From: Mytilus edulis
Lineage: Eukaryota
Direction of reading: 5' to 3'
Assembly: GCF_963676685.1 (NCBI RefSeq)
Contig: NC_092352.1
Coordinates: forward strand, 85,622,001-85,686,000
DNA: 64,000 nucleotides
Shown here: piece by piece, positions 17,490 through 43,520 of the stretch
Layout of the letters: every line of letters begins with the position of its first letter
How positions within the stretch are numbered: the stretch's first letter is position 1
Notes under the pieces: model-generated
What the model was told of the DNA's origin: nothing
Database searches by the model: none
The model's input: the letters and a program-made list of their open reading frames with translations, nothing else
Made by a program: the position numbers and the translations under genes

Positions 17490-17975
17490 GATGTGGATAA
17501 AAACAGCGAAAATACCATAATGTATACGACAGAACGATAAAAGCATGTGACTGAATTCAGTCATAGACTTAGATTTAAAATGTGTTTGTATATATTGTAT
17601 AGATATTTCTACTGTACAAACCGATGTACTTGATAATGTCAATGACTAATGGTGCCAGTGACTGAATTCAGTCAAGATTTTCGTTATTGTTAACATTAAT
17701 ATGTATAGTTTTGAAAAAAGGAAGATGATTCTTGATGTTTGTAAATTGACTGAATTCAGTCAACAGTTTTCTTATGCACTTCTGTAAAAACTGTATATAT
17801 CCCTCAGAGCATTTACTTGTTGTGTAGGATATTGCACACACCCAACTGCTACCAATCTCTAATTTTTAATGTATTATCAATTGAATATTCAAATAAATTA
17901 AGATGAAAGTTGTAGTGCAAGATGACTGAATTCAGTCATGACTATGGTGTCACATATGCAGTTTTTATCCATACA
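17490..17975. repeat. Cluster of four identical 16-bp palindromes TGACTGAATTCAGTCA inside short inverted termini
   Basis: Copies at 17548-17563, 17659-17674, 17747-17762, 17923-17938; flanking tggataaaaacagc / gcagtttttatcca. Confidence 0.8.
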
Positions 17976-18649
17976 GATAACTGGGACAAACAGATTTTCA
18001 TTAAAAAAATAGTCACAATTTAACAGTTTGAATAAAACGTATATTCTCATTTATTTTGTTTTTGAACATGCTAAATAAAAGCTTCAGATTACACAAAAGG
18101 AAGCAAGTACCCATTGTGCCTAATATATTTTTTCCAAACAGAGACCGAAATCTTCAGACTAACAAAATAGTATATGCACATTTGCAATCGTGTACTTCTA
18201 AGAAAATAGCTGAAAATACGTAAGGACACGATTTGCATCAACATGTGTCAATTTTTTCTAAGATATGGGGAGAAACCTCAGTTATCTAAATTTTAAGGAG
18301 GTGTTATTAAGCAGATTCTTGCATACTCTCCATATTTGACAAATCAGAATATTGACAAGTTGAAACAGAATGTGTTATAAAGGAAAAAAGGAGAAACAAT
18401 ACTGAATCAGTCACCGTTTTTTTTGGTAAAATACAGATGAGACAGTTTCGTAGTAGCGTACTAGCCTCGAGTACGCGGTGTCGTGAGTGATCTATCATTA
18501 ATCCAACAAAAATGTATATTTGATAATGATCGGCACATTGAAGAAAAGTAGTAGTATTATGTGGTCTTAGAAATTGTGAACGTGGAAACAGTCTGAAAGT
18601 CCAATTTTTTCTTCTTTCTTCATAGTTTACTTTGGATCATGTATTTGCA

Positions 18650-18711
18650 TAGAACTAGAGATAAATATTTAACAGATACAGTTAAGTCTGCCTCATATCT
18701 TGACTTACATT
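18650..18711 (+). mobile_element. Short Penelope-like RT fragment (TDTVKSASYLDLH)
   Basis: gtctgcctcatatcttgacttacatt nearly identical to 60476-60501. Confidence 0.6.
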
Positions 18712-18788
18712 TTTTTTGTCTACGTCTAAAATGCATTCCTTGTGATGCATAATTCTGAAAAGAAATGATGTCTTTTATTGAATAAAAT

Positions 18789-21700
18789 CTATACACTTTT
18801 CATATAATGATAGCATGTCACTGGAACAGATCTTCTAGATAACGCAAAGGATAAACATTCTGTATTCTGGAATGCATCTAGTCTTTGGGAAAGACAGTTT
18901 TCGAGAAAGGTTTTTAAGTGCTGTACATGTGTTTTATTATGGTGCCAATTGGTATGGAAGTCCTCCACTAAATGAAATAATTTATCAGGTATAGGCAACA
19001 CACTTTTATCTATATAGCTCGTCCTTTCTGAAAAATATTAAGAGCAGAATATCAATTCAAATGGAAGTATTATTTATCCATGAAGCTCAAACCTGATAAA
19101 CAAATTCAGATTCAAAAAGCCTTTCGGACGTTTTTACATGTTAATGTCTGGTATCAGTAGTATTCGTTGTTGTTATGACCCTACAATTGTTCGTTCAAAG
19201 TTCACATTTAGGATTTGGTACACTTTTATAATTTTAGCTTTTTATTATTATTCAGAGTCCTCATTGCGTTTTAATAATTTATTAGTTCATGGTATTTTAC
19301 GCTATTTAAAAAAAACTTGTATTTTACACTTAACTATAATCCTTTCATTCAGATTAAATATCAAAGATTTATATCCGTCTTTAAGATAAAAGGTTCTGTA
19401 AGAAAGAACATAGATAAATTGAAACTAAGTGATAACTGCCGAAAGCCATTCTTGACAAATTTATACGAAGCATGTTTTAATCCGTAATGCCCGCTTTCGG
19501 CAAATAATTCGAATTACTATTATTTAATAAAAATATATTTGATTGGTTCATTTACTGTATGTCAATCAGTCTTTTGAATTTGTATTTTATATTTGTTTTT
19601 TTCAGTTATGTTTTAATATTTGAAATATATGGATTTGAAATAAATATGTAAACTTTCCAGCGACTTGGTCTTTATCTCAACTACCGCTAGTTTCCCCCAG
19701 AAACTAATTAATATGACAGAGGTGAGCAACAACCTGGTCATATTGTTTCATTGTTATAAAACGACATATGCATCTTTTGCCTACCTTTGACATGTTTTTG
19801 GAAGTCCTTTCAAAATCTTTCTGATTGTCTTACCTCCTGGCGATTTAAACCTTTACCATTTTGTTGAAGATATTATATTGATATGTTTTTTGTAGTATAT
19901 ATGTTGTAAGGTTATTATATCGACGTAAACACTAAATTAGTCAAACTCATTACTAAGGTAACATCAGAATAGTGTTTTTGACGAGAGGTAAGATACAACA
20001 AGAGGGCATAATTCAAACTCACAAGTCGAAAACAAACCGACCATGCCAAGAAAAAAGGAAAAGAAAAACGACAAATCGACAAACAACTGCTTACAAAACA
20101 TCTTAAACAAGAATGTGTCTATAGTACACGGATGACCCACTTGCACTATGATTTTACATGTTCAGTGGACCATGAAATTGGGGTAAAAACTGTAATTTGG
20201 CATTAAAATAAGAAAGATAATATCATGAGGAACATGTGTACTAAGTTTCAAGCGGATTGGACTTCAACTTCATCAAAAAACTACTTTGACCAAAAACTTT
20301 ATCCTGAGGTGGGAGGAACGGAGGCACAGACCAGAAAACATAATGCCCCTCTACTATTGTAGGTGGGGCATAAAAACAAAATATTGTGCCATAAAGAGAT
20401 CGTTAAACATTTCTGCCATTCACATCAGTTTATGCTTCCTTTAGGAAATCTTATCCTTTTCGAATGGTGACCATATGGTATCTTTTGCCAAACATAGACA
20501 ACAAATATGGCCCAGAAAATGTTTCATTTTCTTACCCCAGGAGTAGATTACCTTAGCCGTATTTGGCACAACTTTTTGGAATTTTGGGTCCTCAATGCTT
20601 TCAACTTTGTATTTGTTTGGCTTTTTAACTATTTTGATCTGAGCGTCACTGATGAGTCTATTGAAGACGAAACGCGCGTCTGGCGTATAAAATTATAATC
20701 CTGGTATTTTTGATAACTATTCATTCATTTATTAAGTAAAAAAGGCTTATGCCATCAGGAAAAGTTACTAGTAGCTAGATCAGCTCTCTAATAATCCGTT
20801 AGAGCAGTTCTAGATGTCGACAAAGTTAAACGCAGAAAACTTAAACCCCGTCGATCAAAATCGTATGTTATAACAATAATAAGAGTATATTCGTCAAAGT
20901 TAAAGCCGTATTTGAACGCTTATAACGTAAATGATTGCAATGGGTTAAACACTTACGGATACAATGTACCTCAAGCTTTCTCGATGGTTAGTCAAAGACC
21001 ATAAAAGATTATTAGAAATGTTTTGTAGAGCATTATATCTCATAATTGCCTGCATAGAATCTCATAATTAGACTCAATTTAACAGATGTGTATTGCGCAC
21101 TTTATAATCTCTTTTTAAAATGAGTTCGATCCACGAACGTCAAACCAAATTCTTCAAAACTGCTGATTACAGAACAAGCAGATGGTACTTCGGAGAAACT
21201 GATATGGCTACATACTCTTTATTGTCACTATCAGAACTTTACAAAACCAAATAAGTAAGTAAAAATAGGAACACAAATATAAGACATTCTGTAATGTTTC
21301 AAGAATCATCATTAAGTTGATTACAAAAAGTAAGTTTTATATGAATTTATGAGTTTTGAACAGCGTTATACTACTGTTGCCTTTATTTGTATAAGGTTTG
21401 AAGAAATGGTTGCAAAATTCGGAGAAGTGGAAAAAATCTCCCTCAATCATCCCATTATGACATGTAGACAATTACAACATGAATGCAATTCTTTTGCGGA
21501 GTAACAGTTCACAGGGTTAGTATATATTAACTACATAATTTCTGTGTACTTTTATCTGTTGTGTCATATTATATTTGATAAAATATAGATTATTATTATG
21601 AAATGATAAATATGGATAGGTTAAGCGTCCTTGAATGAGAATTATTAATAAAATTAAATATTCTTGTAATTATACCTTATGATTTTTTAAATTTTTTTTT

Positions 21701-24700
21701 TTTTATAAAATTTGGTCTGTTGAAGCAGCCTTCTTTGTCAAAAGTAGTGTTTAATACTTATTAATCTTGGTATATAAGTGCAAGATCTGTAAAATTGTAT
21801 GCAAATGTAATTTTTTTTTAATCATACCATTGTACAATGATTTGGTTTAAATAAGGTTGCAACAACATTAGAAATGGAGATTCATTTCCACTGGGGCCAT
21901 CTTGCAATTTACCTGCTTCACATAAGAATATATATTTATACGAAATATATAACATTTATATATACACGTATATACCATTTGAATATCATATATAAGAGGC
22001 CGTACGGCCTAAGTCTCCAGTGGAAAAAAAGTCTCTGTTATATTTTTATGTATATGTATGAAATCAGAGAAATAAAACAACGAATTTTTTTTTCTCAGGC
22101 CGATTTCTGTACATCGCCAAAATTGTCTCTCTGTAAAAGTGGTATGCCAATTTCTCTTTTTTTTAATTGTCATTTTGTTTAAAAACATACCATTACAACT
22201 GTTTTTATTACTCATGAAAAAGGTAATTCAATTTATTCATGAATATATTATATGTTCTAGTGATGTGAATTCTGTTATATTAACTCGAAAGAGCCGGTAT
22301 CGATCACCAAACACAACTGATATACAACAATAAAATTTGTGTTGAATACAACTCATGTCTTTCTTTCCCTTTTTGCTAGACAGAGATTTGACTATCATTG
22401 ATAGTTGCATAAGGTACAAGATTAAAGCTAGTATTAAAAAAGTTGAAATTGGGATTTCGGGCCTCATCTCTGCTGAAGGTGATATTGACTCTAATAAAAT
22501 TGCCTCATTTCAATTTATTGTGTTTTGAGTGCCCTTTATTCCACAACTATATTCGCGACCAAAAAGATTGAGATTATTATTATCATTTTTTGTTGTTGTT
22601 GTTATCTGTTTATCTTTTGTTATCAACACGAAGTTGTCTGTAATTGAATTCTGGGTTTGAATATCCCTTTGCTATTTTGCTACATCTCCAACATACATTT
22701 TTGAAAATATATAATAAAGAAGTAATACTAAATTATAGATTCACGACTTACTTGGAGGGACGTGGTAGAAGTATAAAACCGGATGTAAAAAGTTTGATAG
22801 ATGTGCATATCTCGGTTCTGTAGCTGCCCTGTCCTCTCTGAATACATCCTCTGACGGACCATGGTAATCCTCTCCATATTCCAGTCCCAAAACTATCATG
22901 CTCTTATTGGATATCGATTCTCCAGTTATTTGACCAAATTGTCGAATTAAATTAACAGGAAATTCCTCAAAATATTCAAATGAAATACTGTAATATAATC
23001 AAGATGTACAAATTTTATAAAAATGACAAAGTATCTTCAAAATGTCATTTTAAATAATTAATATTTTGCTAATTTTTCCATAATTTTGAAATATATTTAA
23101 ATTGGAAATACAAAGCTAGCATTAAACTTTAAGGGGATTTCATAAGTTGTTTGCACTCTTGTTATCAAACGAACATTGCAGATTAAAAAAAAACTACTTT
23201 AAACAAATTGTGAAAGGAAACAAATAAATTTAATGATCAAATTCCGATCATGAAAACATCGTAATCGTGTAGCATCTTGTTAAAATATATGTGAACCAAA
23301 ACATCCCGACATGCATTGCGTTTGGTGACAATTTAATTTAGAGAATACTTTGAAAAATTAATTAGAAAAAACGGGTTTTAAACAAAAAAGTTATAATGAT
23401 AGCTAAATTTTAGAGTTACAATTCTAAATAAAACCTTGTTTAAACTTCACCTGTTTATCAATATAACATCTACCAACTGTCCAAACATTTGGTATATTCC
23501 AGAAGCCTCATTTATCCTTTTCACTGTAACCGGAAGCAAGTTAAAAATACTGTATGCTTGTTTTGGCCACGTTTCACCATGATATCGCAATGATAAGATA
23601 TTGTTTAAAGCACGAGCTGAAAAGAAAATAAAAGCTCAAACAAGTTAATCATTTGTTTTAGGAGAAACACGAACGATCTTTCTAAGTGGTAACCAATAGA
23701 ACTATCAAATTGAATGTATTTTATAGCAATGCCTGTTGTTGGATTTTATATATTATTTTATTTCAATCTTTAATATATGTATAAAAATATTAAATATTAC
23801 TAGAATATGTATACGGCCGTATCGGAAGTTCATATTGGTGTCACAATCAGACAGGAACAGATCAAAAAGGGGTCTATGAACTTTTTTTCATAGAAACATT
23901 CACAAACATTCACAGAGGGTGCAATAACTTTTTAAAAAGTTTGTTGAAATAAGCTAGTCTCAACTATATGTTTTTAAATGAATCCGTAATTTCAATATGC
24001 ATGTGTGTATCTGTTTTTTCAAATATATAGCAATTATTCTACATATTGCGTTTTGTAAGAGAGAGAAAACATAAAGTTACCTGAATACCGGAATCCGTGT
24101 ATGAATCCTCCAGCTGATTTTCTGTGATCAAGTGAATGGGTAGCAGTGCCAACAATATAGATGCCCGGTATTTCCGTAGACTGGTAATCAGGGGAAATTA
24201 ATGGATACTTTCCTTTATAACCACCAGATAGCTGACTTGTGTAAAGGAAGAACCCAAATGTTATTATTAGAGTTCGACAGTCTATATAAGGTTAATTATC
24301 AAGAGACAGATAGCAAGGGACAACGATAAATATGTCAATAAAATCTTCGTATAATAAATTCAAACAAGAATATGTCCATAGTACACGGATGCCCACTCGC
24401 ACTATCATTTTCTTTGTTCAGTAGACCGTAAAATTTGGCATTTAAATTAAAAAGATCATATTTTAGGGAACATGTTTACTAAGTTTCAAGTTGATTGGAG
24501 TCATCAAAAACTACCTCGAACAAAAAAATAGCCTGAAGTGGGACAGACGGACGAACAAACGGACCCAGAAATCAGAAAAACATAATGCACCTCTACTTTA
24601 ATAGGTGGGCATACAAAATTCAAACTTTAAACGGTTACGAAAATTATGTAAATTTCCCCCCAGTTCATACCCCACTGTCATCCGATATCAAAATAAATGC

Positions 24701-25001
24701 GATACAAGTGCAATTGGCTGATTTTATTTTGGTTCTCCTTAAGATAATTTCTGTAAATACTCACTTTGAAAATATAGAAGTATCAAACCGGAACCCGAGA
24801 CAACGAATAATTTGATCGTATGGCTTTTGTAATGGATCATTTTCAAACTGTCCCCATATTTTTGCTGCTTCTTCGTCAGCATCAGTCAAATATAGACCAT
24901 CTTTCTTTCTGACTATCATATAATCTTCTATATTTCCATATTCTAAAAACCCATCCAAAGATTTCAGCTGGTAAGTGTCTAGAATTTCATTATTGATTGC
25001 C
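18789..25001 (-). CDS. FOXRED2: Tandem partial duplicate (copy B) of FOXRED2-like exons 6-10; intact frame, no own exons 1-5 (alternative 3' cassette or young pseudogene)
   Basis: Exons 25001-24765, 24235-24081, 23616-23451, 22987-22752, 19027-18789 have the same lengths as copy A (237, 155, 166, 236, 239 nt). GT-AG intact, no stops or frameshifts, ends CYHYMKSV-TAG with AATAAA at 18779-18774. Confidence 0.75.
20106..20376 (-). mobile_element. Short HINE-like element (aacaagaatgtgtc..agtacacggatg); also 24363-24617 and 34831-35107
   Basis: Three related copies with (GGAC)n-like tract and terminal hairpin; the latter two occupy the same position in intron 6 of copies B and A. Confidence 0.65.
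20643..20686 (+). ncRNA. Minimal type I hammerhead ribozyme motif (best-preserved copy)
   Basis: GCGUCA CUGAUGA GUCU-AUUGA-AGAC GAAA CGCGCG UC UGGCGU: full core, helix II 4 bp, palindromic helix III, helix I GCGUCA/UGGCGU with two G-U pairs. Confidence 0.8.
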
Positions 25002-25875
25002 CTGAAAGAATACAATATTTCATTTAATAGCAAGACAAATAATGTGCTGTATTTAAAACGTCTACGTTAAACGGCAAGCTACATTTGTATAAATAAACAA
25101 AAGTTCTGAAAAGCAGTGAATACATTTAACAAAATCTAGCAAGTCCAAATATGAAATACACCAATAACAAAGTCCTCTACTGGAATTATTGCAGTACTGC
25201 AAAGCAAGACACAGATAGAAAGGACTTATCAAACTGGATACATTAAGTTCTTCTCAAGATTGTTACGTATGCAACACAAAACGATCAGATTGAACAACCT
25301 ATTGTGGCATTCCTTTTCATACATGGTCTTTTTTCGTGTTCTGAATATGAAATTGATAAGCCAAATAATCTAGTTTGGGATATTCCTGCTTCGACTCAAT
25401 GCACGGCTTGTTTTGTCTTCTTGAAATAAATCCTAAATACGAAAGTTTTTCTACTCCAGGATAAGGTACTTTCAGTCAAATCTGTCACAATTTTCTTTAT
25501 TTTTTAAGCTATAGTAACTTCGTCATTCGTCCCTGTTTTGATTCTAACACCACACGCGAGTCTAATAAACGTTATTCTCATGATGGTAGCTTTAATTTGA
25601 ATCTATTGTTTCTTTCTAACTGAACAATTAATGCTGAATAAAATAGTTTCATAAATAAAGATCCCGAATCGAAAAACAATGTTCCACTTTGTGTTGGCTT
25701 GAAGTAAAAGCATAAGTCCCCAGTAAAAGATTATCTCTGTTTAATTTTTACACCTAGGTTTATGTACAAGAAAGGAAGACTAAAACATTATGTCCACAAA
25801 GGAAAAACTGAAATATCAAAACATCATTTGTCTCTATCATCTTTTGTAAGACCGAAATATAAAATATGTATTCGA

Positions 25876-25919
25876 GCGTCACTGATGAGTCTTTTGTAGA
25901 CGAAACGCGCGTCTTGCTT
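25876..25919 (+). ncRNA. Minimal hammerhead ribozyme motif, helix I partly mismatched
   Basis: GCGTCA CTGATGA GTCT TTTGT AGAC GAAA CGCGCG TC TTGCTT. Confidence 0.7.
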
Positions 25920-26355
25920 ATATACAAAACTTAGTCCTGATATCTATGATGAGTTTATTTACAATTACAACAACTCTCAGTTGAATATAAAACATTCTCA
26001 TAGCGACATTTCAGTGATACAAAACTGTATTTGATTTTGTTACGAAGAACCTTATGAACATGATAAAATATTTTTATCATTATGTATTTGTTGGGAGTCG
26101 AAAAAACCATATAGTGATTGCGAGCATCAATTAATGACGAGTCACATAAAAATGAAAAACGTTGTATAAATAAGATTATCAATACCAAATTTATTGCGTC
26201 ACATGATGCACATTTTCAAAAATTGATGTCTCTTCAGTGATGTATTAAGTCAAAATATTTGAAAATCAAATACAAAATTTATAGTACAGAAAAAATAAGG
26301 AAGGACCAAAATAAATCAAGAGCCGTACTTTTGCTTGCATTCCTGGTTTCAAAAT

Positions 26356-26790
26356 CAAATAAAGGCAACAGTAGTATACCGCTGTTTAAAATTCACAAAT
26401 CGATAGAGAAAAACAAATCCGGGTAACAAAGTAAAACTGAGGGAAAAGTATCAAATATAAGACAACTACGACACAACAGAGACACAACGCCGAAACGTAA
26501 CCACAGAAACGAACTATAATGTAACAATGGCCATTTTCCTGACTTGGTACAGGGCATTTTATGAAAAAATGGTGTGTTGAACCTGGTTTTGTGGCATGCC
26601 AAACCTCCCGCTTTAATGGTAGTGTTATTTATAACATTAATTTGACAACATTACACGACAGGGTTACAATAAATAAACAGATAAATGGGAGAAAATATAG
26701 GACCGAGAAACAAACGAATAATAGCCATCAAAAGGTAACAGGTTAAAAAATATTTTTATACGCCAGACGCGCGTTACGTCCACACAAAAC
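26356..26790 (-). mobile_element. Interspersed retroposon family ending ...ctactgttgcctttattt (also 41860-42205, 27505-27610, 21340-21388, 30215-30430)
   Basis: Multiple near-identical copies with a constant end; this copy adjoins a partial hammerhead (26760-26790). Confidence 0.7.
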
Positions 26791-26976
26791 AATGCTCAGA
26801 ACATTTTCAGAGGTAACACTTTTTGTATTTAGTTGATAATTAACCTGGTATGAAATGAGACTTTCCTCGTGCAAACGCAAAATTCATTCGTTTCAAGATT
26901 AAGATTTTAGAACGCATCGTATGCAGATTAGAACTTACGAAATTAGTTTTGCTTTAGAGTCTCAGAAAAGTATTAA

Positions 26977-27212
26977 GGGACGACATCAAAAGAACGATGT
27001 AGGATAAAAAAAAACTTAAATCAAATAGTTGGGGGTGGAAAGGGGAGGAGGCAACATAGCTGCAAGTTTTGTTAATCCAAAATCGATTTTACATATATCC
27101 ATATAGATAAATCAATTTTTCCCAAATTAAGTTAAGAGGGGGATGGGGGGTCAGTGAAAAAACTATATGAACTAAGTTTTTTTATCCTACATTTAACTTT
27201 TGATGTCGTCCC
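26977..27212. mobile_element. Tourist/PIF-Harbinger-like MITE with TAA target duplication
   Basis: TAA-gggacgacatcaaaag..atgtaggataaaaaa ... tttttatcctacat..cttttgatgtcgtccc-TAA; TIR ~40 bp. Confidence 0.75.
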
Positions 27213-29069
27213 TAAACATGTAGCAAAACTGATTTATCAATTTAGAGGATTTTAACAGGACAGGTCACAAAAAATTAAGCCTTTTATATTATATATATAT
27301 ATATAAAAAATTCTAATTTAATTTAATGCTTTGTAAATAATTTATAGTTAATAATGTGATCGAAAAGTTAGTATTCTCTATATCTTTATATGTTGCAGTG
27401 TTATATACGATAACATTAAAAATACACGGTTGAATTGTTATACAAAAGTAATCGTTCTTTAATTCGTTATAATTTGAAAACAAAACATTTGTAGTTGTTT
27501 TAAATTTATATTTAATGCGTTTCCCTCGGTTTTAGTTTGTTACCCCGATTTTGTTTTTTGTCCATGGATTTATGAGTTTGAACAGCGGTATACTACTGTT
27601 GCCTTTATTTTAAAGAAAAGGAAAAAAAAAAACAATAAGGACAACATTATAACTTCTAGAAGGAGTTTATTTTGTCAAAAGATTTTTTTATTCATACATC
27701 ATTTTATTCTATTTGTTCACGATGTTTTGAAAATTTTGCAAATATATTTTTTTGGGGTATAAAACTAACGTGATATATATTAATTTAAATTGAAACACGA
27801 CTGTATTGGATAATGGAGATTTTATTTCACTGGGGCCACCACTTTTACAATTTTCAATTATAACCATGTTTAAATACTTACCTTAAAGAATATTTATGTT
27901 AATACCCTAAGCGTTCTATTTCTTTATAATGGCCTTAAGTATTTGCCTCAGTCTTTAGTGGGACATGTATCTCCGTTTTGTATGCCTAAATTATTTATTT
28001 ACACGAAGGAAAAACTGGAGAATCAAAACTTGTTAATTTTGCTATTATGTATTGAATGACCGACATATAAAGCATACATATGTTTTATGTACAATATTTT
28101 CTGCGTTTAAATAACAACACTCAAAGCGACTTCCAAATTGTATAAATAACATTCACAATACCATTTATAAATTACATTGCAAAATACCCATTCCTATAAC
28201 TTATGTCTCTTTCGTTATCCTCGAGGCAAAAATATTAAAAAGTTCATAATCGATGAACAACGTTGATTCTGAGGAAGGCGGCAAAATATAAAAGGTAAAA
28301 AAGTACAGCCAAAAACGGACCTTTAATAACATTCATCATTTCAAAAAACAAACATCCTCTCAGGCTATACGTATTTTAATAACATATTTTATTAACTAGA
28401 AAATGTAATAAAAGTGAAAAGATTGAAATATAGGTCTGTTCACATTCTATTCAGAAACCGATGTATGTATTTTTTTTTTACAATTTTATACCTTTTGATT
28501 CATGCAACAATTTATGCGGGAGTCATTATAAACTCAATATATTTAAACGTTGTATATGTTGCAGGCATTTAGAAAATGTTCTTAATTTAGTCATTTTGTA
28601 AAATTTTGAAACAAAATTCCACAATTGAACTGTCCAGTTTCAGGCAATTTGTAGAAGATTAATATCATTGAGATGTATATGACAAAAGTAGAAAAAACAC
28701 AATATCTTGCAAAGCAAATAACTAATGGTTCGGTAGAATTAATTTATTTTCCAAAAAATCATCTGGGAAGGTTTGTATGTCATATGATGAGATTTTTTTA
28801 ATTGTGAATCTACGTAAAGTATGTACTCACTCAGGATTTCAGATAGTGAAATTATAATTATTTAGTCAAAATGACAGGAGGACAAATTGTTCTTTCATTA
28901 GAACAAACTATCTAACGATATTTTAGAAAGTCCAGAATCAATACAGTGAAGTGAAACATATGAAACAGACAAATGGAGGTTTGTTTATAATTGATTGTTT
29001 GCTTATTTCATACATTCTTAAGATGAGAATGATTTGGTTATAATTTATATGAGTATGTTCTGCAGTGGA

Positions 29070-29264
29070 AAGTAAAATCACAAAAATACTGAACTCAAAG
29101 GAAAATTCAAAAAGGAAAGTCCCCAATCAAATGACAAAATCAAAAGTTCAAACACATCCAACGAATTGATAACAACTGTCATATTCCTAACTTGGTACAG
29201 ACAAGTGTCTAATGTAGAAAATGGTGGATTGAACCTGGTTTTATAGCTAGCTAAACCTCTCACT
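29070..29264 (-). mobile_element. 5'-truncated retroposon copy with 9-bp target-site duplication (family also at 33954-34157, 36017-36160, 38515-38600, 54090-54520)
   Basis: tgcagtgga at 29061-29069 and 29265-29273; shared end aagtaaaatcacaaaaatactgaactc. Confidence 0.75.
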
Positions 29265-31609
29265 TGCAGTGGATTATTCTGAATAAAGGACAGGAATTAC
29301 CAGTGCCGCTTTCCCATTTATACAATGGGTTTCGCGATACGAAGCGGTTTATGATTGTGATGCCAATATATGAGTATCTTATATTCACTGCGTCCAGTTA
29401 TCGATGAATCACACGTTATGGGCAGATCTGATTCACTGAGTTCTGTCCGTTAAAAGCTATTAGCCAAAAGATACAAGTCAATCTAATCATGATAATGTAC
29501 TTTGAATCTTCTGGGAACATATAATTTTTTTTAAAAAAGATGCATATGTGACGTTTGTGCTCATTGCGAAACCCAATGTTGTTGAATGTTAAGTGTTTCT
29601 CAGAAATGGTAATGGAAGTGCATAATTAGTGCTAATCCAGGTTTCTCCAAATGTGGTAGAAGTGCGGAAACCAGACAAATCAGGACAAATAGTGTGATCA
29701 GTTGTATCATCCAAACATTTTGAGAAACTACAAATAACTGTGCTTGTGTTAATTTGGAATTATTCAGTAAAATTTATTCTTGATTATTTAAAATCTTATT
29801 TCTTATTTCAGTAATTATCATAAATAGAACTGCTCCGGTGTTCAGGGCTTTCAATTGTTTTTTTTTTTTAATTTACATATTATTCTATAAACTAATTTCA
29901 GGCTTTACAAAATGCCTAAATTTAGAAATGCCTGTAACATATACACAGTAATAAGCTAACTTTCCGTAATCAATAGGAATACACTAGTGAGACTGGATAA
30001 ATTATGAATTGTATTGTTTTTCGTATGAAGTATAGTTTCTGTGCATAAAAGGTCGCGTTAGGGGAGCATTTCACTAAAATTGAGAGATCAGTTTATAAAC
30101 ATTACGATGAAATTAACTGTGCATGTGATTTAGAAACAAATTCTACCGTTATGGTTGTCAAGATGGATGGAAACACCAACAGATAAATATAATTGAGTAA
30201 CTTTTGCAAAAAATCAATTAAAAGCAACAGTAGTAAATCAATTAAAAGCAACAGCAGTACACCGATTGAGAGAAAGCAAATCTTGGTTACAAACTAAAAA
30301 CCAAAAACACTAAAAAAACTATAAGAGTAAAAAAACAAAAAAACTACAGAAACACTGATTTTCAACAAAAAACAAACGACAATGCAACACACAAGAAAAC
30401 GAACTATAAGGTAACAACTGTCCTTTTCCTGAGTTGGTTGAAATGAAATGACAGGAATACAACACAAATGAATGCAAGAACTCTCAGGACAGAAAAAAAC
30501 ACAAATAGACAATGCAATAATACATTTCGACGTGTTAACAATAGAATAAAAACGAACACGTAAAACAACCTATGTAGGACAGCACAACAGAACCAGAAAT
30601 ATTTGGGTAGTTTGGGTATCAAAGGAAAGCTTTTTGGATCACTTTAGAACCCTTAGTAAAAGTTTATTTTGAATAATAAAGATGTATATAGAATGTTGAT
30701 AGGAGGGCACATTTGCCCTGTTGTTCAATTAAGAAGAACCTGTTTTTTTGTACTATCGAACTTCTGGGAACCAGTACTCTCTTATATGAAATTAAAGGTA
30801 CAGGTATGTTGAATTTTTCAAAACAAGTCATGTTAAGGTACTAGTACAGTTTAGACATTAAATAACTGTCCCTATATTTGAACTTAAGACAAAGACTCCA
30901 TTTATGCTTGAAATTGCAGAATTTAAAATAGAAAGCAATGGGGCCATTTATTAGTGTTTTTTTTTTACCATGAGTGGTTTTCTGTTTTGAATTTTCGATA
31001 TTTTTGATTTTACATTTTTTGTAACGATAACATATTGTTTATGGAGTCGATGTTTGTGAATGTACTGAATAAATATGAGACAATAATGATTTTTCTGATC
31101 TAATGATAGACATCTTTGCAAGGCAAGTGTTAAGATCAAGTCTCACCCTCTCTGTGGATCGTTACCATTGGCGGGCAAAGACGAGGGATTAATTGCTTAT
31201 CCACATTTACCATAATTTGGCATAAATAGAATACTAGTACTTGTTTGTTTTTAATGATTTTCACATTCGTTATTAATTTTGTTTTTCAAACATTTTGGTT
31301 CTAACTCCACTGGTGAACCGCGTGTATGCGGACATTACATTACCGGCCTTCTCAGTTAAAAGGGGTCGGTTTCACAAAAAAAACTTACAACTAAGATTGG
31401 TCTTAAGTCATGAACAAATCAATATACTTACGATTAATCTTAGTCGTAAGTTTTTTTTGTGAAATCGAATTCTGGTTTCTTGTTCAGTCTTTCATCGGCA
31501 GCAAATCGAGTAGATAACACAAGCATCACTGATGTTTTTCTCATCTTATAATGACATAGATTATGCACAATTTTTAAAATGATATTATTTTTTTTTATTG
31601 AAATCGTTC

Positions 31610-31848
31610 TTATGCACTTTTCAAATAGTGATAGCATGTCACTGGAACAGATCTTCTAGATAAGGCAAATGATAAACAGTCTGTATTCTGGAATGCATCT
31701 AGTCTTTGCGAAAGACAGTTTTCCAGAAAGGTTTTTAAGTGTTGTACATGTGTTTTATTATGATGCCAGTTGGTATGAAAGTCCTCCACTAAATGAAATA
31801 ATTTATCAGGTATAGGCAACACACTTTTATCTAAATAGCTTGTCCTCT
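31610..31848 (-). CDS. FOXRED2: FOXRED2-like terminal exon 10 (copy A)
   Basis: TTTCAG|AG; [27 protein letters not shown]...CYHYLKSA, then TAA at 31612-31610; AATAAA at 31599-31594. Confidence 0.9.
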
Positions 31849-34800
31849 CTGAAATATATAATTAGGAGCAAAATATAAATTCAAATGGCAGTATTATTTA
31901 TCAGATGAAGCTTAGACCTGATGAACAAATTCAGATTTTCATGCACGTTTTTCATGTTTAAGGTCCGTAATCAATAGTTTTTGTTGTTGTTTTCTGGAAA
32001 TAAATTCTAGTCTATAACAGTCAAGTTCTGTAAAATTGTATGCAAATGTAATTTTTTTTTATCAGATCAATGTAAAATGTATTGGTTTAAATAAGATTGC
32101 AACAACATTGACAAATGGAGATTCAATTTCACTGGGGCCACCATGCAATCGTGTCTGCACGTAACAATAAGATAATAGTGACGATCTATTTCAATATGTA
32201 TATATACCATTTCAAAACACAAGGCAGAGGCTGTACGGCCTAAGTTTCCAGTGGAAAAGTAATCTCTGTTATATTTTTTTTTTTTTTTTATATATATATA
32301 TGAAACCATAGAGTATAACAACGAGTTTTTTCTCAGCCGGGTTTTTCTACCTCGCCAAAATTGTCTCTCTATCCAAGTAGAGTAAACGTTTCGGCCGATT
32401 TCTCTTTTTATATTGTTATTTTGTTATTCAAACATATTATTACAACTGTTTTGATTACTCATAAAAAAGGTACTTCAATTAACTCATGAATATATCATAT
32501 GTTCTGAATATCATTATATTAACCCTAAGAAGCATGTATAGATCACCATACATTTTTGTAAACAACTGATACACTGTACAATACAACATAGAGTTTGTGT
32601 TGAATAGAAATTTTTTTCCTTTCCCTTTCTGCTAGGCTAGACAGAGATTTTGACTATCATTGATAGTTGCACAAGGTACAAGATTAAAGCTAGTATTAAA
32701 AGTTGAAATTGGATTTCGGGCCTCATCTCTACTAAGGGTAATATTGACTTTAATAGAATTGCCTCATTTCAATTTATTGTGTTTTGAGCGCCTTTTATTC
32801 CACAACTATATTCGCGACCAAAAGGATGAAGTTTATTCGTTTTTATTTTGTTTATGTTGTTTTTTGTAATCTGTTTATCTTTTCGTTGTTATCGCCATGA
32901 AGTTGTCTTTAATTGAATTCTGAGTTTGAATATCCCTTTGCTATTTTAGTACATCTCCAACATACATTTTTGAAAATATATAATAAAGAAGTAATACTAA
33001 ATGATAGCTTCGCGACTTACTTGGAGGGACGTGGTAGAAGTATAAAACCGGATGTAAAAAGTTTGATAGATGTGCATATCTCGGTTCTGTAGCTGCCCTG
33101 TCCTCTCTGAATACATCCTCTGACGGACCATGGTAATCCTCTCCATATTCCAGTCCCCAAACTATCATGCTCTTATTGGATATCGATTCTCCAGTTATTT
33201 GACCAAATTCTCGAATTAAATTAATAGGAAATTCCTCAAAATATTCAAATGAAATACTGTAATATAATGAAGATGTACAAATTTAAAAAAAAATGACAAA
33301 GTAGCTACAAAAATGTCATTTTAAATAATTAATATTTTGCTAATTTTTCCATAACAATTTTGAAATATATTTGAATTGGAAATACAAAGCTAGCATTAAA
33401 CTTTAAAGAGGATTTCATAAGTTGCTTGCACTCTTGTTATTAAACGAACATTGCAGATTATAAAATACTACTTTACACAAATTGTGAAAGGAAACAAATA
33501 TATTTAATGATCAAATTTCGATCATGAAAGCATCGTATTGTGCAGCATCTTGTAGAATATATGTGAACCAAAATTTCCCGACATGCATTGCGTTTGGTGA
33601 CCATTTAATTTAGAGAATACTTTAAGAAATTTATTAGAAAAAATGGGTTCTTAACAAGGAAGTTATAATGATAGCTAAAATTTAGAGTTACAATTCTAAA
33701 TAAAAGCTTACCTGTTTATCAATATAACATCTACCAGCTGTCCAAACATTTGGTATATTCCAGAAGCTTCATTTATCCTTTTCACTGTAAGCGGAAGCAA
33801 GTTAGAAATACTGTATGCTTGTTTTGGCCACGTTTCACCATGATATCGCCATGATAAGATTTTGTTTAAAGCACGAGCTGAAAGAAAATAAAAGCTCAAA
33901 CAAAATTTAATCATATTTTTAGGAGAAACACGAAAGATCTTACTAGGTGGTAAAAAGTAAAAACACAAAAATACTGAACTCCGAGGAAAATTCAAAAAGG
34001 AAAATCAAAAATCAAAAGGCAAAATCAAAAGTCCAAGCACATCAAACGAATGGATAACAACTGTCATATTCCTGACTTGGTACAGGCATTTTCTAATGTA
34101 GAAAATGGTGGATTGAACCTGGTTTTATAGCTAGCTAAACCTCTCACTTGTATGACAGTAACCAACAGAACTATCAAATTGAATTTATTTATAGCAATGC
34201 CGTTGTCAGCCTGATGTTTGATTCTACATATTATTTTATTGAAATCTTTAATATATGTATAAAAATATTAAATATTACTACAATATATATATACGGCCGT
34301 ATCGGATGTTCATATTGGTGTCGCCATCAGACAGGAACAAGTCAAAAAGTGTCTTTGAACTTTTTTTTCACAGAAACATTCACAGAGTACACCAAAACAA
34401 TTTAAAAGTTTTTAATTATAAAACTGGTCACTTTATATGTGTCTTTAAACCGTAATTTCAAAATGCAAGTGTGTGTGTGTTTGGTGTCAAATAAATAGCA
34501 ATTATGCTACATATTGTATTTTGTAAGATAGAGAAATAGTATGTCACCTGAATATCGGAATCCGTGTATGAATCCTCCAGCCGATTTTCTGTGATCAAGT
34601 GAATGGGTAGCAGTGCCAACAATATAGATCCCCGGTATATCTGTTGATTGGTAATCAGGGGTGATTAATGGATACTTTCCTTTATAACCACCAGATAGCT
34701 GACTTGTGAAAGGGAAGAATCCAAAATTATATTATTAGAGTTTGACAGTCTATATAAGGTTAATTACCAAGAGACAGATAGCAAGGGACAACAATAAATA

Positions 34801-37800
34801 TGTAAATGAAATCTTCTTATAAAAAATTCAAACAAGAATGTGTCGATAGCACACGGATGCCAACTCGCATTATCATTTTCTATGTTCACTAGACCGTAAA
34901 ATGGGGTCAAAAATATAATTTGGCATTTAAATTAAAAAGATCATATTATAAGGAACAGGTTTACTAAGTTTAACGTTGATTGGACTCCAACTTCATCAAA
35001 AACTACCTCGAACAAAAAAATAGCCTGACGTCGGACAGACGGACGAACGAACGGACCTAGAGATCCGAAAACATAATGCACCTCTACTATAATAGGTGGG
35101 CATACAAAATACAAACTTTTAACGGTTAGGAAAATTATGTAAATTTTCCACCAGTTCATATCCCACTGTTATCCGATATCAATGTAAATGCGGTACAAGT
35201 GCAATTGGCTGATTTTATTTTGGTTCTCCTTAAGATAATTTCTGTAAATACTCACTTTGAAAATATAGAAGTATCAAACCGGAACCCGAGACAACGAATG
35301 ATTTGATCGTATGGCTTTTGTAATGGATCATTTTCAAACTGTCCCCATATTTTTGCTGCTTCTTCGTCAGCATCAGTCAAATATAGACCATCTTTCTTTC
35401 TGACTATCATATAATCTTCTATATTTCCATATTCTAAAAACCCATCCAAAGATTTCAGCTGGTAAGTGTCTAGAATTTCATTATTGATAGCCCTGAAAGA
35501 ATACAATACTTCATTTTATAGCATGGAAGTCTCGAAGAAATAAAGGATAATTTGCGATATACACGGTGTCGACGTAAAAAGCAAGCTAAGAATAAACAAA
35601 AGGTCGGAAAAAGCAGGGAATTATTTATGTAACTCATGGTATCAAGTTGAAAATATATTTATGTTACTTGGCGAAAAAAAAAAAGTGGCGAAAAATATAA
35701 TGTTTTGGCGAAAGAGGTGGCGAAAAAAATAATTGACCCCGGGGAAACCCTGGTATCAACTCTAAATTCCTAACTTTGACATAAAATACACGAGTCTTCT
35801 ACTGGAATAATTGCAGAACTACGAAACAAGACACACAATGCAAGGAGTTATCCAACTGGGCATATTTAGTCTTTTTATGTATGCACCAATGTAAATATCC
35901 ACAACACAATCACTATATTTCACAAAACAAAAGACTTAGATTTTCGACATAGCTTTTACTTCTGTAATAGGAAACCGAAGAACAAATTTTACTGTCGTTA
36001 AATATCATTTACATTTAAAATGCCTGTACCAAGTCAGGAATATGACAGTTCTTGTCCATTCGTTTTTGATGTGTTTTGTCATTTGATTTTGCCATGTGAT
36101 TATGGACTTTCCGATTTGATTTTCCTCTGAGTTCAGTATTTTTGTGATTTGACTTTTTACTTAAAGCACAATTAAAACATTTGCAATTCAAATCAGATTG
36201 AACAACCTATGTCTGCATTCGATTCCTTAAGTATTGTTGCTTTAACAAACATTCAAAGATGTTAAAAATGAAATCCATAAAAATTGAATCCATATGAATG
36301 AAATAGTACATATAAATTAGTAAACACAGTCTCTCTTCATACTATGAAATTTCTTGTCTTCATAAAAAAATTAAAATAACTAAAAATAGAATAAATAAGC
36401 CAAAAAGGTATAGTTTGTGAGATTCTTGACTAGATTTATTAGATTTTGATGGTCTAGCTTAATAGAGAATAAAGTACATCCATCTCCATGCAAACAAACT
36501 GACGGTTACATAAATGCATAATCAAAGTGAAACTAGCAGATTCACATAGATTAGAATAAATTATCTGAACCAAGTTTATTTAAATGATGTAACCTTCTTT
36601 TAATACACAATTTGATACCATTTTCTGCTAATACATACTGCACCAAAGATTTGATATAAACTGTTTTTATTGAACGACATAAAGCCGAAAATTTCGTTTT
36701 CATCAGATTTGAAAGAAAAAAAAATATTCATGAGAAGAACATAATGTTTGTTCACCACTCCAATAATATATACCCCGCTCCCCCATCCCTTCCCCCCAAA
36801 AAATATACTTAAACGAAATAATTATTAAGTTGTCTACATCTTGAATACATTGTTTATTATATTACTGTAATAAATATTTCAAACCAGGAAATATTGAAAC
36901 AATGTTGTAATCTTTACTCATAAATATGTTTTACGATATTTTTATTGCAATATCTCGAGAAAATAAAAATGCAAATTAACCAATTTTCTTCTGCTCTCCG
37001 TGAACCACGCTTTTGTTGCTTTTCTAATATCAGAAATTATGAAGCGCACAAATAAAATTATGTATTAATTACAAAATAGAAGTAGCGGAGACTACAATCT
37101 ATTGAATTGCAATTAATCGTGATATTGTTTGTTGACGAAAATTCTTTTTAATTGGCATTCGAGTGTCTATTAATGACAAAATTAAGGGAGATAATTTGCC
37201 CATTTTATTCATTATCTGCAGACGACAAAAAACATTCATGACTGATTGACAGATAGTTGTGTCTTGTGGTATAAATATAGAAAAAGAAGATACTAAAAAT
37301 TCAATATCAGACGAATTAGTTGTTGGAGCATATTTTGTAGACGAAAATTTGAACTTTGATAAGGACGACCTGATAATTAGAAAACAATAAATGTCCATTG
37401 ATCACCATAAATAAGTAATGTCAAATAAACATTTACAAATACATTGTTTTTTCAAGGAATTATTTTCTTAAGATTGCACAATCATTTTACACTTTTTTTC
37501 ATTTATTACTTTTATTCCTTTTGGTATTTGATATTCGTTTTTTCTTGTAGACAGAAAATTATGTTATACAATTATACAATTTCAAAAGAAAATAAACAAT
37601 CAGATTTCTTTATACTATTTTCTATACTAGTATTTTAATCCATTTGTGATAAGTCTCCCTATTCATCCAATTACTTGAAATGAAATATGCGTCCAAACTA
37701 ACGAAGAAAAATACTCCCCCCTTAACAAAAATTAAAAAAAAATATAAAACCCAACCGAAATACCTAAAGTAAACCCCCAAATGTTAAGACCAACATAAAA

Positions 37801-40800
37801 ACAAACAAAAATCGACGTTAGGAAACCAATAATCAATCAATCCTTTTTAGCAATTCAATGTATAAGATTTTCCTCCCATTACAATAAATACTCGTTTTGT
37901 TTTATAAAATATATCAAAAACATACCTTATATCTCCAACATAATGGGTTTCCCATGCTAAACGAATCCTGTGTCGCCCAATCATATGAACATAGTTAGTT
38001 CTATCATAAATTGCCTGAGCTGTTTCAAAAGCTGAGTTTCCTCTACCTTTGAAAAGAAATAATACAATGTATATCATACAATGTTTTCCATTTCTTAAAC
38101 CTCAAGCCTGTAGCCAGGGATTTCCAAGGGGGGGGGGGGGGTATCTGGACTTTCGAACTCAACTTTAACATTCACAATCAAACAGATCGTTGACTTTAAC
38201 AGAGCTCATTTGTTTTCAAGGGGGGGGGGGGGTCATACGAACCCCGCCGAACCCCCCTGGCTAAGGGTATTATCCTTGAATATACATTACTAAACGTTCC
38301 GTTAGAAGTTCTAACAGTATGGCCACAGCCTATGTTAGTTAACGTTTTGGGCAACCTTAAGGTATATGAGGTTTTTGTAAACCGCTTTTTTATTTTTGTT
38401 CGTGGATTGTTTTTTGCCATGATTGTCTCTATCTTTTAAGATGATAAAACAATTACTTATTACACTTGTAGATATAAAAATGTTTCTCAGGAAAACAAAT
38501 CTACTCTCGTTTCACGTGTTTGGTCATTTGATTTTGCCATGTGATTAGGGACTTTCCGATTGAATTTTCCTCTGAGTTCAGTATTTTTGTGATTTTACTT
38601 TTTTTCTTTTTCATACCTCAAGTGTTTGGCCTTGAGCTTTCCTTATATAAAAAAAAGGATAGCACTTCGGACGCCGACAATTATGATGTTTTGTTTTCAT
38701 GTCAACAACACTGGGTCCGTACTGTTCTTATTGGACTATCAGTTGGCACAGTGGTCAGTTCTTTGGTACTGCAGTACTGACATGATTTGCAGAAAACCTT
38801 TCTAAAAAGAGGGACGAAAGATACCAAAGGGACAGTCAAACTCATAAATCTTAAATTGTCCGTTTAGAAATGCATGTATAAGAAACTAAGATTTCATCTC
38901 CCTAAGCTCTTCTAGCAATTTAGATACATAAAAAGGTGTTGTTTTAATTTATTTGTACATGTTTAATAAAATCCCCAAATACTAATATCAGATGCAATCA
39001 AACAATATGAATTACCTAGTATTAAAACAGATTTCCCTTCATAATCAGGACCAAATGTTGATATGTCTTCATATCCGTCCGTAAATTCGATTCCAGTTAC
39101 ATTTGGTTTCAACGGTAAAGACAGTCCCGTTCCAACTATAACTATACTGTAATCGTAAAAAGTTCATTAGCATTTAAAAAATAAAATAAAACTGTAGAAG
39201 AACATATAGAACTGCGACAACTTAAAAAAGACAAAAACATTCTATAACCAAATTTAAAATAAAACGTATATGCTATATATCCTTGGCTTTTTAATATTCG
39301 GCTTAAACAGTTTCTGATGATGGTTAATAAAAAAACGCTTCGGACGCATGCATTTTATTATGAGTTGTATTCATCATTTCCCGTGAAAAACGTTATCGTT
39401 TGTCAAAAAAAGAAAAGATTTTGAGAACTAGGCCAGAAGCCATTTTATGAATGTTGTCATCCAGTAAACTAGGGTGGAATAGCTACCATCTTATACGAAT
39501 TTTCGTTTGAATTCTTTCTAAAAATCTTGTGAACAAAAATTCAGTTTTAATCGATTTCTTACACCCAATGATATCTACTTATCATTCTAAACAGAAATCA
39601 TCCATTCCTTTCGATACTTTTGGTGCTTTTGAATTTTACAGATAATGTTAACGGACAGACAGACAGATGAACAATATGAATCCCGCATCCTTGATGTGAT
39701 GCCCAATCTTACCTAGTTTCTACTTATGATAATTCGACTTCGAATATGCTTTGGGCTTTCGTCTTTTGTTTAGTATCTTGTGCCGGCCTCTAGCTATATT
39801 CTCTGATTTTATTTGGCTGTTCTGTTGCAATTTCAACAGTACGGTATTTTTTTATTACGACAGCATCAACTGGAAATCCTTTTATTTTCGAAGTTTTCTG
39901 GATAATGCAAGAGACTTTTGAATTTTGACAAGTCAAATTTAATATTCTAGAAAAGAACATTAAAGTCCAAAGAAATGATAATAATTTCATCAAAACGTCT
40001 CATCCTAATTTAATTTTATTCATCTAAGCTTCCACTAAAATTGCCAATACTAATATATTTAAAATCTTCAAAATATGAACACGTACTTGCAATGTGTTAT
40101 GTTGTTATGTTGATCTTTTAGAAGGAACCACATGGGCTTCATCTTTCTGATATTCTTTATTTCTATATTGTATCGGATATTCAGTTTGTAATATGAAGCA
40201 TATGTGTTAATGTAACTGAAAGAAAATAGGATTATATTACTTTACCTTACATGATTTGTAATCAATATTCAATAATAAAGTCTGATGAAAAAAATTGTAA
40301 TATAAAAAAATGAATCCTTTATTGAAATTGGTTGAATAAGTCTGTTTTTATATGACAAAAAAGAAAAAAAGTATAAAGAAAGTGCTGTATTTTTTAAAAA
40401 AGGCAGACAGTTTGCGTCAATCCTTATAAAAGTCCTACATTTAAATATATAGTTGAAATACTATATGATATCAGGGCAGCAAGTAGGAATATTTTTTCGC
40501 TTACTTTTTTCTATAGAACATTTGTTCTTGCGCCTTACCTTTTTGACGAAAGTTGTAGTATCGTAAAACTTTCCTAATTTCATAAAAATGTATAAATATA
40601 TAAATATATTTATATATGATTATCACGTATCATGAAACTACTAAGGACTTGATCTTTATTCATATGTTTCACCTACCTCATATTTTGTTTAAAAAAAAAT
40701 ACAATTATAAAGATTCTAACTCAACTGAATGTCATAAGATCGTCTACCTGATGTAGCTGTCAGCTGTTGGAAACATTTCTTTTGAAAATTCCTTAAATAG

Positions 40801-43080: not shown

Positions 43081-43415
43081 ACAAACCCGACTATCTAAGT
43101 GTTTAAACACAGACAAAAACGTAAAAAAAAATTACGGAAGAACTTTAAGATAAAATTGGAAATGGAAATTTGGATATGCAAAAGAGACATCAACCCGACC
43201 AAAGAGAAGAAAACAGCCTATTCAACATTTTGAAAAATGTACACAAGCTGTCCCATTAACCTATCACTTTAAACATTACAATATTTTAACAAACCTAGTT
43301 TCACTTTGAATGAAAGCAAACACTTTAATAGCTTATTAGCAGACTGAATTGTAAGAGAAAAAAAGGATGTATACTTCCTTTCATAAAAAAATCTCAATTA
43401 AAGAAATAGACTTAC

Positions 43416-43520
43416 CTTTTTTCAATTGCCTCAAAGTATATACTGTTGTAAACTTTGCAACGAGTTAAGATGAAGTGTATTCCAAATAAACTCGTTGTGT
43501 AATATATATTTCCCCAGTTA
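43416..43520 (-). other. Putative non-coding first (5' UTR) exon of FOXRED2-like gene
   Basis: Consensus donor AAG|GTAAGT (intron starts 43415) upstream of the acceptor-bearing ATG exon. The 5' end is not determinable from sequence. Confidence 0.4.

Follow-up and report, generated by a model that had tools for sequence, protein, structure and literature searches.

A FOXRED2-like gene of the blue mussel, Mytilus edulis, consists of ten exons on the minus strand and is followed by an intact copy (copy B) of its exons 6 to 10 (copy A). The two halves probably behave as structural alleles that recombination swaps between animals, a reading favored over a choice between them by splicing. The window, that is, the whole stretch of 64,000 nt that was analyzed (GCF_963676685.1, NC_092352.1:85,622,001-85,686,000), contains no assembly gap (0 N). 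Its features are listed by window position.

41668..41824, minus strand: exon 1, coding part, with the ATG, hydrophobic N-terminus and FAD-binding glycine motif; translation that of named protein P0046
40748..40931, minus strand: exon 2; one close copy in G000
40087..40215, minus strand: exon 3
39016..39146, minus strand: exon 4
37926..38046, minus strand: exon 5, phase 2 donor; one close copy in G000
35256..35492, minus strand: exon 6A; 2 of 237 bases differ from 6B, with an exact shared run of 188 bp
34548..34702, minus strand: exon 7A
33712..33877, minus strand: exon 8A
33021..33256, minus strand: exon 9A
31610..31848, minus strand: exon 10A to the stop (TAA); AATAAA at 31599
25313..31562, no strand assigned: linker of ~6.2 kb without N, with A's 3' flank (30993-31562, common to copy C) and dispersed repeats
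25299..25324, minus strand: nine-codon first exon given to B by named model P0039; non-consensus donor, overlapping the intron-5 remnant
25002..25312, minus strand: decayed remnant of distal intron 5 before B; ~84% of aligned bases match A's intron 5, with many deletions
24765..25001, minus strand: exon 6B
24081..24235, minus strand: exon 7B; 9 differences from 7A
23451..23616, minus strand: exon 8B; W381L and S396F, not in the B-type contigs of runs X1 and X14
22752..22987, minus strand: exon 9B
18789..19027, minus strand: exon 10B to the stop (TAG); 16 differences from 10A
18400..18788, minus strand: 3' UTR of B-type transcripts, continuing past 18400; next AATAAA at 18055
44289..46649, plus strand: copy C, a fragment in inverted orientation that contains most of intron 9, exon 10 and the 3' flank of A, with 94-96% similarity to A

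Exons 6 to 10 were compared between A and B. Their lengths are equal (237, 155, 166, 236 and 239 nt), all splice sites are GT-AG with identical phases, and exons 1 to 5 joined to either half give an open frame of 584 aa. The preliminary description had claimed that B keeps exon lengths, splice sites, frame and stop, and each of these was verified. In the named models, A is the gene, its spliced product being identical to P0046, and B is a separate model. The two products differ by 13 amino acid changes; every difference reported earlier is genuine, and L511I and D562E, both in exon 10, are additional. The AATAAA attributed to B does lie about 10 nt past the stop, as in A (18779 and 31599), but a spliced B-type contig runs past it to beyond 18400. 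The hexamer at 18779 is therefore not the only transcript end.

The 584-aa protein is predicted, from its domain match and modeled structure, to contain FAD- and NAD(P)H-binding domains in a two-dinucleotide-binding fold. PF13738 covers residues 22 to 349 (134.5 bits), the predicted structure has a pLDDT of 85, and the best fold matches are FNR/Bdr/FMO (E ~1e-17). The earlier picture of a duplicated tail on an FAD-binding N-terminus is too simple: the duplication break, at residue 241, cuts PF13738. Over its whole length, the protein is 41-55% identical to the 72 non-Mytilus homologs in a 75-row alignment. The 13 A/B changes fall in none of the 82 strongly conserved columns, i.e., they are at variable positions; sparing the strongly conserved ones, they would leave the A and B proteins near-equivalent, and the differences are small and probably carry little functional weight. 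The mussel protein resembles FOXRED2/ERFAD, as far as described in excerpts of PMC3040216, in its named homologs, PF13738, hydrophobic N-terminus and flavoprotein reductase/monooxygenase fold, and differs from it in being 584 aa long and in lacking, in both A and B, a KEEL-type C-terminal signal. KEEL is also absent from the other three Mytilus proteins and the two clam homologs shown. A role in ER-associated degradation is described for FOXRED2/ERFAD in the same excerpts (PMC3040216), and the literature search found no paper on FOXRED2 in Mytilus. A second mussel paralog lies on C9, so there are two candidates for the true ortholog.

Between A and B, dS is 0.109 and dN is 0.016 (dN/dS of 0.15), and introns 6 to 9 diverge by 7-12%. 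On the B lineage, 6-9 nonsynonymous changes were counted against about 11 synonymous ones, far below the neutral expectation (p<0.001, assuming that synonymous changes are evenly split between the lineages). B is intact, was under purifying selection in its past and is spliced in RNA-like contigs, and it is therefore not junk. The A/B divergence of 10% is neutral as to whether the assembly is in error here, because both types appear as full-length alleles. Exon 6 with its flank (24700-25000) differs by only ~1%, compared with 7-12% in the introns, a figure that constraint on the exon lowers too. I265 is common to A and B, and L is found at this site in X1, X14 and three of the five named congener proteins that cover it. 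Both observations may reflect patchy local homogenization of A and B around exon 6. The private changes of B number only two, W381L and S396F, neither of which appears in the B-type contigs of X1 or X14; at position 381, L occurs in 0 of 119 homologs and W in 56. These two changes make it possible that B is decaying in this haplotype. A itself has three changes absent from other A-type proteins, namely, L401, I438 and W460 (W in 1 of 119 homologs). Among the named Mytilus proteins, those of full length are either A-type or mosaics of A and B.

According to the window and G000 searches, the duplicate B has no 5' exons of its own. As claimed before, exons 1 to 5 are absent between the copies, with no trace found in 25003-31613 by tblastn with the full protein (E<=10), and no independent 5' end for B was found by tblastn in the window or in 10 kb of flank on each side. 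Searches of G000 with exon 2, exon 5 and intron 5, which score the best candidates only, returned, besides the gene, a 67-74% paralog that lies on C9 with a twin on C1840; for each of exons 2 and 5, there is one close copy. The exon 10 of copy C (45787-46025) is broken by an internal TGA; this third copy had not been mentioned earlier.

Next, other mussels were examined in five runs (X1, X2, X4, X14 and X16) among 24 listed, all as contigs. Three further runs on the list consisted of raw reads and bore the label miRNA-Seq; the list named no RNA holder on record, from which nothing follows about expression. X1 is a DNA run. The runs had been selected for holding B exon 10 and are thus biased towards B; contigs show presence but not absence and drop variants, and splice joints were read only among the pieces listed. 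A 653-bp contig of X1 aligned with B over 24535-25012 with 5 differences, in a segment where A and B differ at 19 places, and left B at 25012. Over its entire length, the same contig could be aligned to 35033-35678, at the cost of 24 differences and 3 gaps, its first 175 bases fitting the gene's own intron 5. Both placements were counted as one contig on the grounds of equal length, depth and strand. In this one contig of one DNA run, intron 5 of the gene is joined directly to a B-type exon 6 and intron 6. These 175 bases of intron 5 beside exon 6 are ~4% off the reference, more than the other pieces of X1, and they do not fit the decayed ~300-bp remnant before B. De Bruijn contigs break at branches, and the contig would therefore point to a single exon 6 in X1. 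The X1 contigs flanking this bridge match the 5' half and B at >99.5%; among the pieces listed, there were 16 differences in ~3830 bp of the 5' half (5 pieces) and 12 in 5074 bp of B with its flank (7 pieces). The bridge and its flanks together suggest that the B-type is the working 3' half of other, single-copy alleles, and B is likely the ordinary 3' half of such alleles. The arrangement is, on the evidence of this run, not fixed across individuals. The longest X1 piece in the linker was 110 bp among the matches listed.

At the nine listed sites of exon 10, the B letter was found at 9 of 9 in X1, 9 of 9 in X4 and 7 of 9 in X2. In X2, an A-like contig of intron 6, with 10 differences over 649 bp, occurred alongside a B-type exon 9 and a B-like exon 10; such a mixture could come from a mosaic, from a heterozygote or from an animal with both copies. 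Among the matches listed for X1, X2 and X4, there was no A-type or C-type exon 10 contig, which does not imply absence. Spliced B-type contigs were present in all three RNA-like runs examined, runs picked for B. From their length alone, the 808 upstream bases in X16 were taken as exons 1 to 5. The reality of the A+B arrangement itself depends on the assembly.

The best explanation, to which we give about an even chance of being correct, is a partial tandem duplication of some age, segregating alongside alleles of hybrid or deletion type as PMS2/PMS2CL does. In this account, a stretch reaching from distal intron 5 to shortly after the stop would have been duplicated in tandem long ago, producing a proximal A and a distal B. 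A crossover in the near-identical exon-6 regions would then delete A and the linker (10.5 kb) and leave the 5' half with B, the structure found in X1; alternatively, an unequal crossover between diverged alleles could have come first. In alleles made of the 5' half and B, B would be the only 3' half and under purifying selection, and in spliced contigs, the 3' flank of B serves as 3' UTR. Recombination among alleles would renew B within A+B haplotypes and keep it intact there. In such haplotypes, the nearer A is likely to be spliced and polyadenylated, with B largely a passenger. Large indel polymorphism is described as the norm in Mytilus in the available part of PMC7653742.

The preliminary description had instead proposed a splicing choice within an A+B haplotype: exon 5, or one of the A donors after it, would be joined to A when polyadenylation occurs early and to B upon read-through, giving mutually exclusive or chimeric C-terminal halves. 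We consider this unlikely. It would agree with the intact splice sites, frame and stop of B and its dN/dS of 0.15, with the spliced B-type contigs in the three RNA-like runs, and with the fact that A retains only ~45 bp of the shared 3' flank whereas B has a long UTR seen in RNA, which makes read-through past A plausible. C-terminal swaps are also overrepresented among tandem-exon substitutions (77 of the 236 human events in the excerpted PMC9741552), and multiexon swaps are known, as for NECTIN2 (PMC8373072, in part). However, single-copy B alleles account for both the selection signal and the B-type RNA, five canonical exons and a terminal exon would have to be skipped across 12.9 kb, the named models keep A and B apart, and changes at variable positions would bring little functional gain. 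The contigs revealed neither an exon 5-6B joint nor an A/B chimera in any known carrier of A and B, and none of the runs examined is an established carrier of both. Phase compatibility had been put forward for splicing; the phase 2 donor of exon 5 does fit both 6 and 6', and later A donors fit B, but this carries no evidence of splicing, since every tandem copy has it automatically (on paper, 13 joins from exon 5 or an A exon into B would be in frame). Slightly less probable still is a mutually exclusive multiexon cassette in the making: the same two C-terminal halves would exist as single-copy alleles in some mussels, and A+B haplotypes would present both for a choice by splicing or polyadenylation. 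The turning of an allelic polymorphism into an isoform switch is part of this reading and shares its low standing. Homologous exons do lie consecutively in the genome with intact sites and phase. Nothing pertinent joining partial duplication with alternative last exons was found in the literature.

It is also improbable, though about as credible as the splicing choice, that the assembly placed the sequenced animal's two alleles one after the other as A and B, a false exon gain that the preliminary description had also raised as an uncollapsed haplotype. In X1, B-type sequence behaves like a whole-gene allele, heterozygosity and hemizygosity are high in mussels (PMC7653742, in part), the assembly has at least one redundant contig (C1840 matches C9:20.07-20.08 Mb at 99.9% over 10 kb), and false exon gains are a known class of error (excerpts of PMC9516828). 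Against this, the window has no N gap, and false duplications are mostly separated by gaps according to those excerpts (PMC9516828). A fused haplotype should carry exon 5 and intron 5 before B, and what was found is the decayed 300-bp remnant, to which the intron 5 of X1 does not correspond. A single intron 5 is present in G000, the linker has no long match to either flank, and copy C indicates that the locus does duplicate its own pieces. We regard it as very improbable that B stands alone as a gene truncated at its 5' end and starting from a short first exon of its own, the form given by the named 352-aa model P0039. This model exists and its last 343 residues are those of B, and the B-type contig of X4 spans only the end of exon 8, exons 9 and 10 and the UTR, with no listed cover on exons 1 to 7. 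Contigs with 3' bias are common in RNA assemblies, however, and could explain the X4 cover. The first exon of P0039 lies partly in the intron-5 remnant, and its donor is not of the consensus type. Its product has no hydrophobic N-terminus and misses most of PF13738 (20.5 bits against a cut-off of 30), and it would not be expected to fold as a two-dinucleotide-binding flavoprotein.

The proposed recombining structural alleles were compared with three known systems. PMS2/PMS2CL in human, as far as covered in excerpts of PMC3398144, is similar in that only the 3' exons are duplicated and the copies exchange sequence, and hybrid alleles in which the gene bears the other copy's 3' part are common, comparable to the X1 contig (a single run). 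The same excerpts place PMS2CL in inverted orientation at a distance of 0.7 Mb, with frameshifts in its exon 11, whereas B is in direct tandem, 6 kb downstream and fully intact. Unlike PMS2CL, B could also be reached by splicing, and its direct orientation permits deletion by crossover. Tandem-exon C-terminal substitutions such as NECTIN2 share homologous 3' exons in tandem behind common 5' exons, with mostly conservative changes (PMC8373072 and PMC9741552, both in part). Those events are described there as fixed, mostly ancient and in transcripts of one allele, whereas the A/B pair, known here from its genomic arrangement, appears polymorphic and young (dS 0.11), with its break inside a domain. 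The presence-absence variation and large indels of Mytilus (excerpts of PMC7653742) likewise involve a structural difference among individuals at a coding locus; here, the difference affects half of a gene, and either form appears to specify a whole protein.

If the account based on recombining alleles is true, a constrained and intact duplicate cassette is kept by recombination with alleles that use it, without alternative splicing. The locus would then be a clean example and a warning for genome scans, and the separate 352-aa gene model and SNP calls at the locus would be unreliable. If a cassette is in the making, the locus would offer a testable step on the way from allelic variation to alternative terminal cassettes. 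For the M. galloprovincialis isoform P0040, the short ending was not located near the gene. The M. coruscus models P0041 and P0042, considered as a second duplication, are really the two halves of one split model.

The window, on contig C9 of the 1.37-Gb Mytilus edulis genome, consists of AT-rich animal DNA with 0 N. It carries a ten-exon FOXRED2-like gene and two further copies of parts of its 3' half:

41824-37926 (exons 1-5) and 35492-31610 (exons 6A-10A), minus strand: FOXRED2-like gene, 584-aa frame
25001-18789, minus strand: copy B, exons 6-10 repeated, with equal exon lengths, GT-AG sites and phases and an intact frame
44289-46649, inverted relative to the gene: copy C, comprising the larger part of intron 9, an exon 10 interrupted by TGA, and the flank of A

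The 584-aa translation of exons 1-5 and 6A-10A was identical, letter for letter, to the M. edulis protein P0046, a [quoted passage not shown] A PF13738 match spans residues 22-349, and the AlphaFold model of the product (pLDDT 85) matches FNR/Bdr/FMO-type flavoproteins. Human ERFAD/FOXRED2 is outlined in PMC3040216 as an ERAD flavoprotein of the ER with the C-terminal end KEEL. A hydrophobic N terminus is present in the mussel forms; a KEEL-type ending, sought at their C termini, was absent. A second FOXRED2 paralog lies at 20.08 Mb of C9. An unplaced contig, C1840, aligned with this paralog region (C9:20073000-20082999) at 99.9% over 9973 aligned bases, with 0 mismatches and 1 gap opening; it would be either redundant or the product of a very recent duplication. 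A strong donor-like site on the minus strand at 43415-43416, 1.6 kb upstream of the ATG, may mark a 5' UTR exon.

The comparison of A with B bore out the intact five-exon copy of the preliminary description. Their exons differ at 36 bases, 22 of them synonymous, 13 nonsynonymous and 1 in the stop codon (dS, 0.109; dN, 0.016; ratio, 0.15; Fisher P of 6e-8), and 7 to 12% of the aligned bases differ in introns 6-9. At one end the homology takes in 300 bp of decayed intron 5 preceding B; at the other it ends some 45 bp beyond the stop codon. To judge from the sequence, this layout is that of a tandem duplication, with the upstream intron kept by the proximal copy and the downstream flank by the distal one. 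The break falls at residue 241, within the PF13738 domain. Dispersed repeats are present in the 6.2-kb linker between A and B, and a search there for a remnant of exons 1-5 found none, as the earlier account had stated. One close copy each of exons 2 and 5 and of intron 5 is present in the assembly. In the annotation, B is a separate 352-aa model (P0039), the 9-codon first exon of which overlaps the intron-5 remnant. A high-copy repeat family is inserted at 33950-34158 (intron 7 of A; missing in B), 29069-29266 (linker), 36010-36160 (intron 5) and 38507-38603 (intron 4). The only AG/GTRAG site of the linker, a strong donor-like site at 27881 on the minus strand, could act as donor if transcripts read through from exon 10A to B.

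Replacement changes on the B lineage were far below the neutral number, and none of the 13 A/B amino acid changes fell at the 82 strongly conserved columns. W381L and S396F, found in B of the assembled genome, were missing from the B-type contigs of DNA run X1 and RNA-like run X14; L at residue 381 occurred in 0 of 119 homologs. These two changes fit a recent relaxation of B, the numbers being tiny, and A likewise has odd private changes, such as W460 (1/119 homologs).

Sequencing runs were sought with exon 10 of B, and 5 of the 24 listed were compared, all as contigs; the RNA status of runs is a guess, though the pieces end at exon boundaries. In X4, a 1227-nt contig joined exon 9B (3/3 diagnostic sites of B type) to exon 10B (16/16), with a UTR extending past 18400. 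X14 contained exon 7B (2/2 sites) joined to exon 8B (3/5), as well as exon 10B (12/12), and X16 contained B-like pieces of exon 7 (6/7) and exon 10 (6/7). Some mussels therefore transcribe and splice B-type exons. The RNA-like runs were chosen for holding B and are uninformative on animals with both A and B. A 1018-nt contig of X16 has 808 bases preceding exon 6, which by length alone fits exons 1-5 plus the UTR. Within 17549-18415, just downstream of B and in or close to the 3' UTR of B-type transcripts, the palindrome GACTGAATTCAGTCA occurs four times (17549, 17660, 17748 and 17924), with a variant at 18401.

Contigs of X1 tiled B and its flank (12 differences in 5074 bp; 7 pieces) and also the 5' half (16 differences in ~3830 bp; 5 pieces). 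A 653-bp contig was B-type in intron 6 and exon 6, where it had 5 differences from B against 19 between A and B; it departed from B at 25012 and then followed the gene's own intron 5 for 175 bases. The simplest reading would be a single-copy allele composed of the 5' half and B, the expected product of an exon-6 crossover removing 10.5 kb; the exon-6 regions of A and B share 188 identical bp. DNA run X2 was less clear, its intron-6 contig being A-like, its exon 9 of B type and its exon 10 similar to that of B. Among the named full-length proteins, P0001 (M. galloprovincialis) and P0045 (M. edulis) are A-type and P0044 (M. trossulus) is a mosaic, and I511 and V584 are common to B and M. californianus, suggesting two old types between which recombination occurs. 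P0002, an M. edulis model on a record other than that of the A-type full-length model, combines exons 2, 5 and 6 with an exon 9 that is either B-like or ancestral, exon 2 being in another frame; it is possibly a second full-length allele. In P0004, from M. galloprovincialis, changes occur in conserved motifs of exon 7 and the end is frameshifted; it resembles a non-B-type copy or allele of the gene undergoing decay.

Two intact halves in the assembly, spliced B-type contigs and the join of the 5' half to B in one DNA run were seen directly. We give about an even chance to a reading in which an old partial tandem duplication of the gene's 3' half would be followed by crossover within exon 6, yielding hybrid or deletion alleles; B would stay intact through selection in those alleles and allelic recombination, and A would be the default 3' half where A and B co-occur. 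The preliminary description had proposed that the shared 5' exons could be spliced alternatively to the A or B half. The phases on which it relied do match, but this is automatic, with 13 in-frame joins possible on paper, and no such junction was seen in the contigs of runs picked for B; we regard it as doubtful, even with the shared 3' flank mostly absent from A and read-through past A plausible. A low level of splicing to B might occur alongside the structural alleles, the readings being not fully exclusive. It is similarly unlikely that A and B are two haplotypes fused in the assembly, a case for which PMC9516828 outlines criteria: B behaves as an allele and a redundant contig exists in the assembly, but the window has no gap and the sequence preceding B is unlike what a second haplotype should carry. 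That B is a stand-alone truncated gene is highly improbable.

The closest system in its working is PMS2/PMS2CL, for which PMC3398144 describes a partial duplicate of the 3' part and frequent hybrid alleles, and large structural variation in mussels, as outlined in PMC7653742, forms the background to the locus. The locus also resembles the tandem-exon C-terminal substitutions described in PMC8373072 and PMC9741552. However, these need both halves to be spliced from one allele, whereas B-type splicing is known here only from B-selected runs, and they need a fixed arrangement, which X1 contradicts. A search on Mytilus together with FOXRED2 found no paper in the literature collection covered.

Exon 10 has three matches in the assembly, all within the window, because copy C also holds this exon. 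About 515 bp lost from A are retained in C. The 3' end of A (30993-32845) and copy C (44289-46649) are inverted repeats, 94-96% alike, with exons 1-9 and the probable promoter lying between them. If the two recombined, the gene would be inverted and exon 9 would come to stand before the stop-broken exon 10C. The 3' flank common to A and C contains a MITE-like 100-bp imperfect inverted repeat (31366-31468 and 46165-46267).
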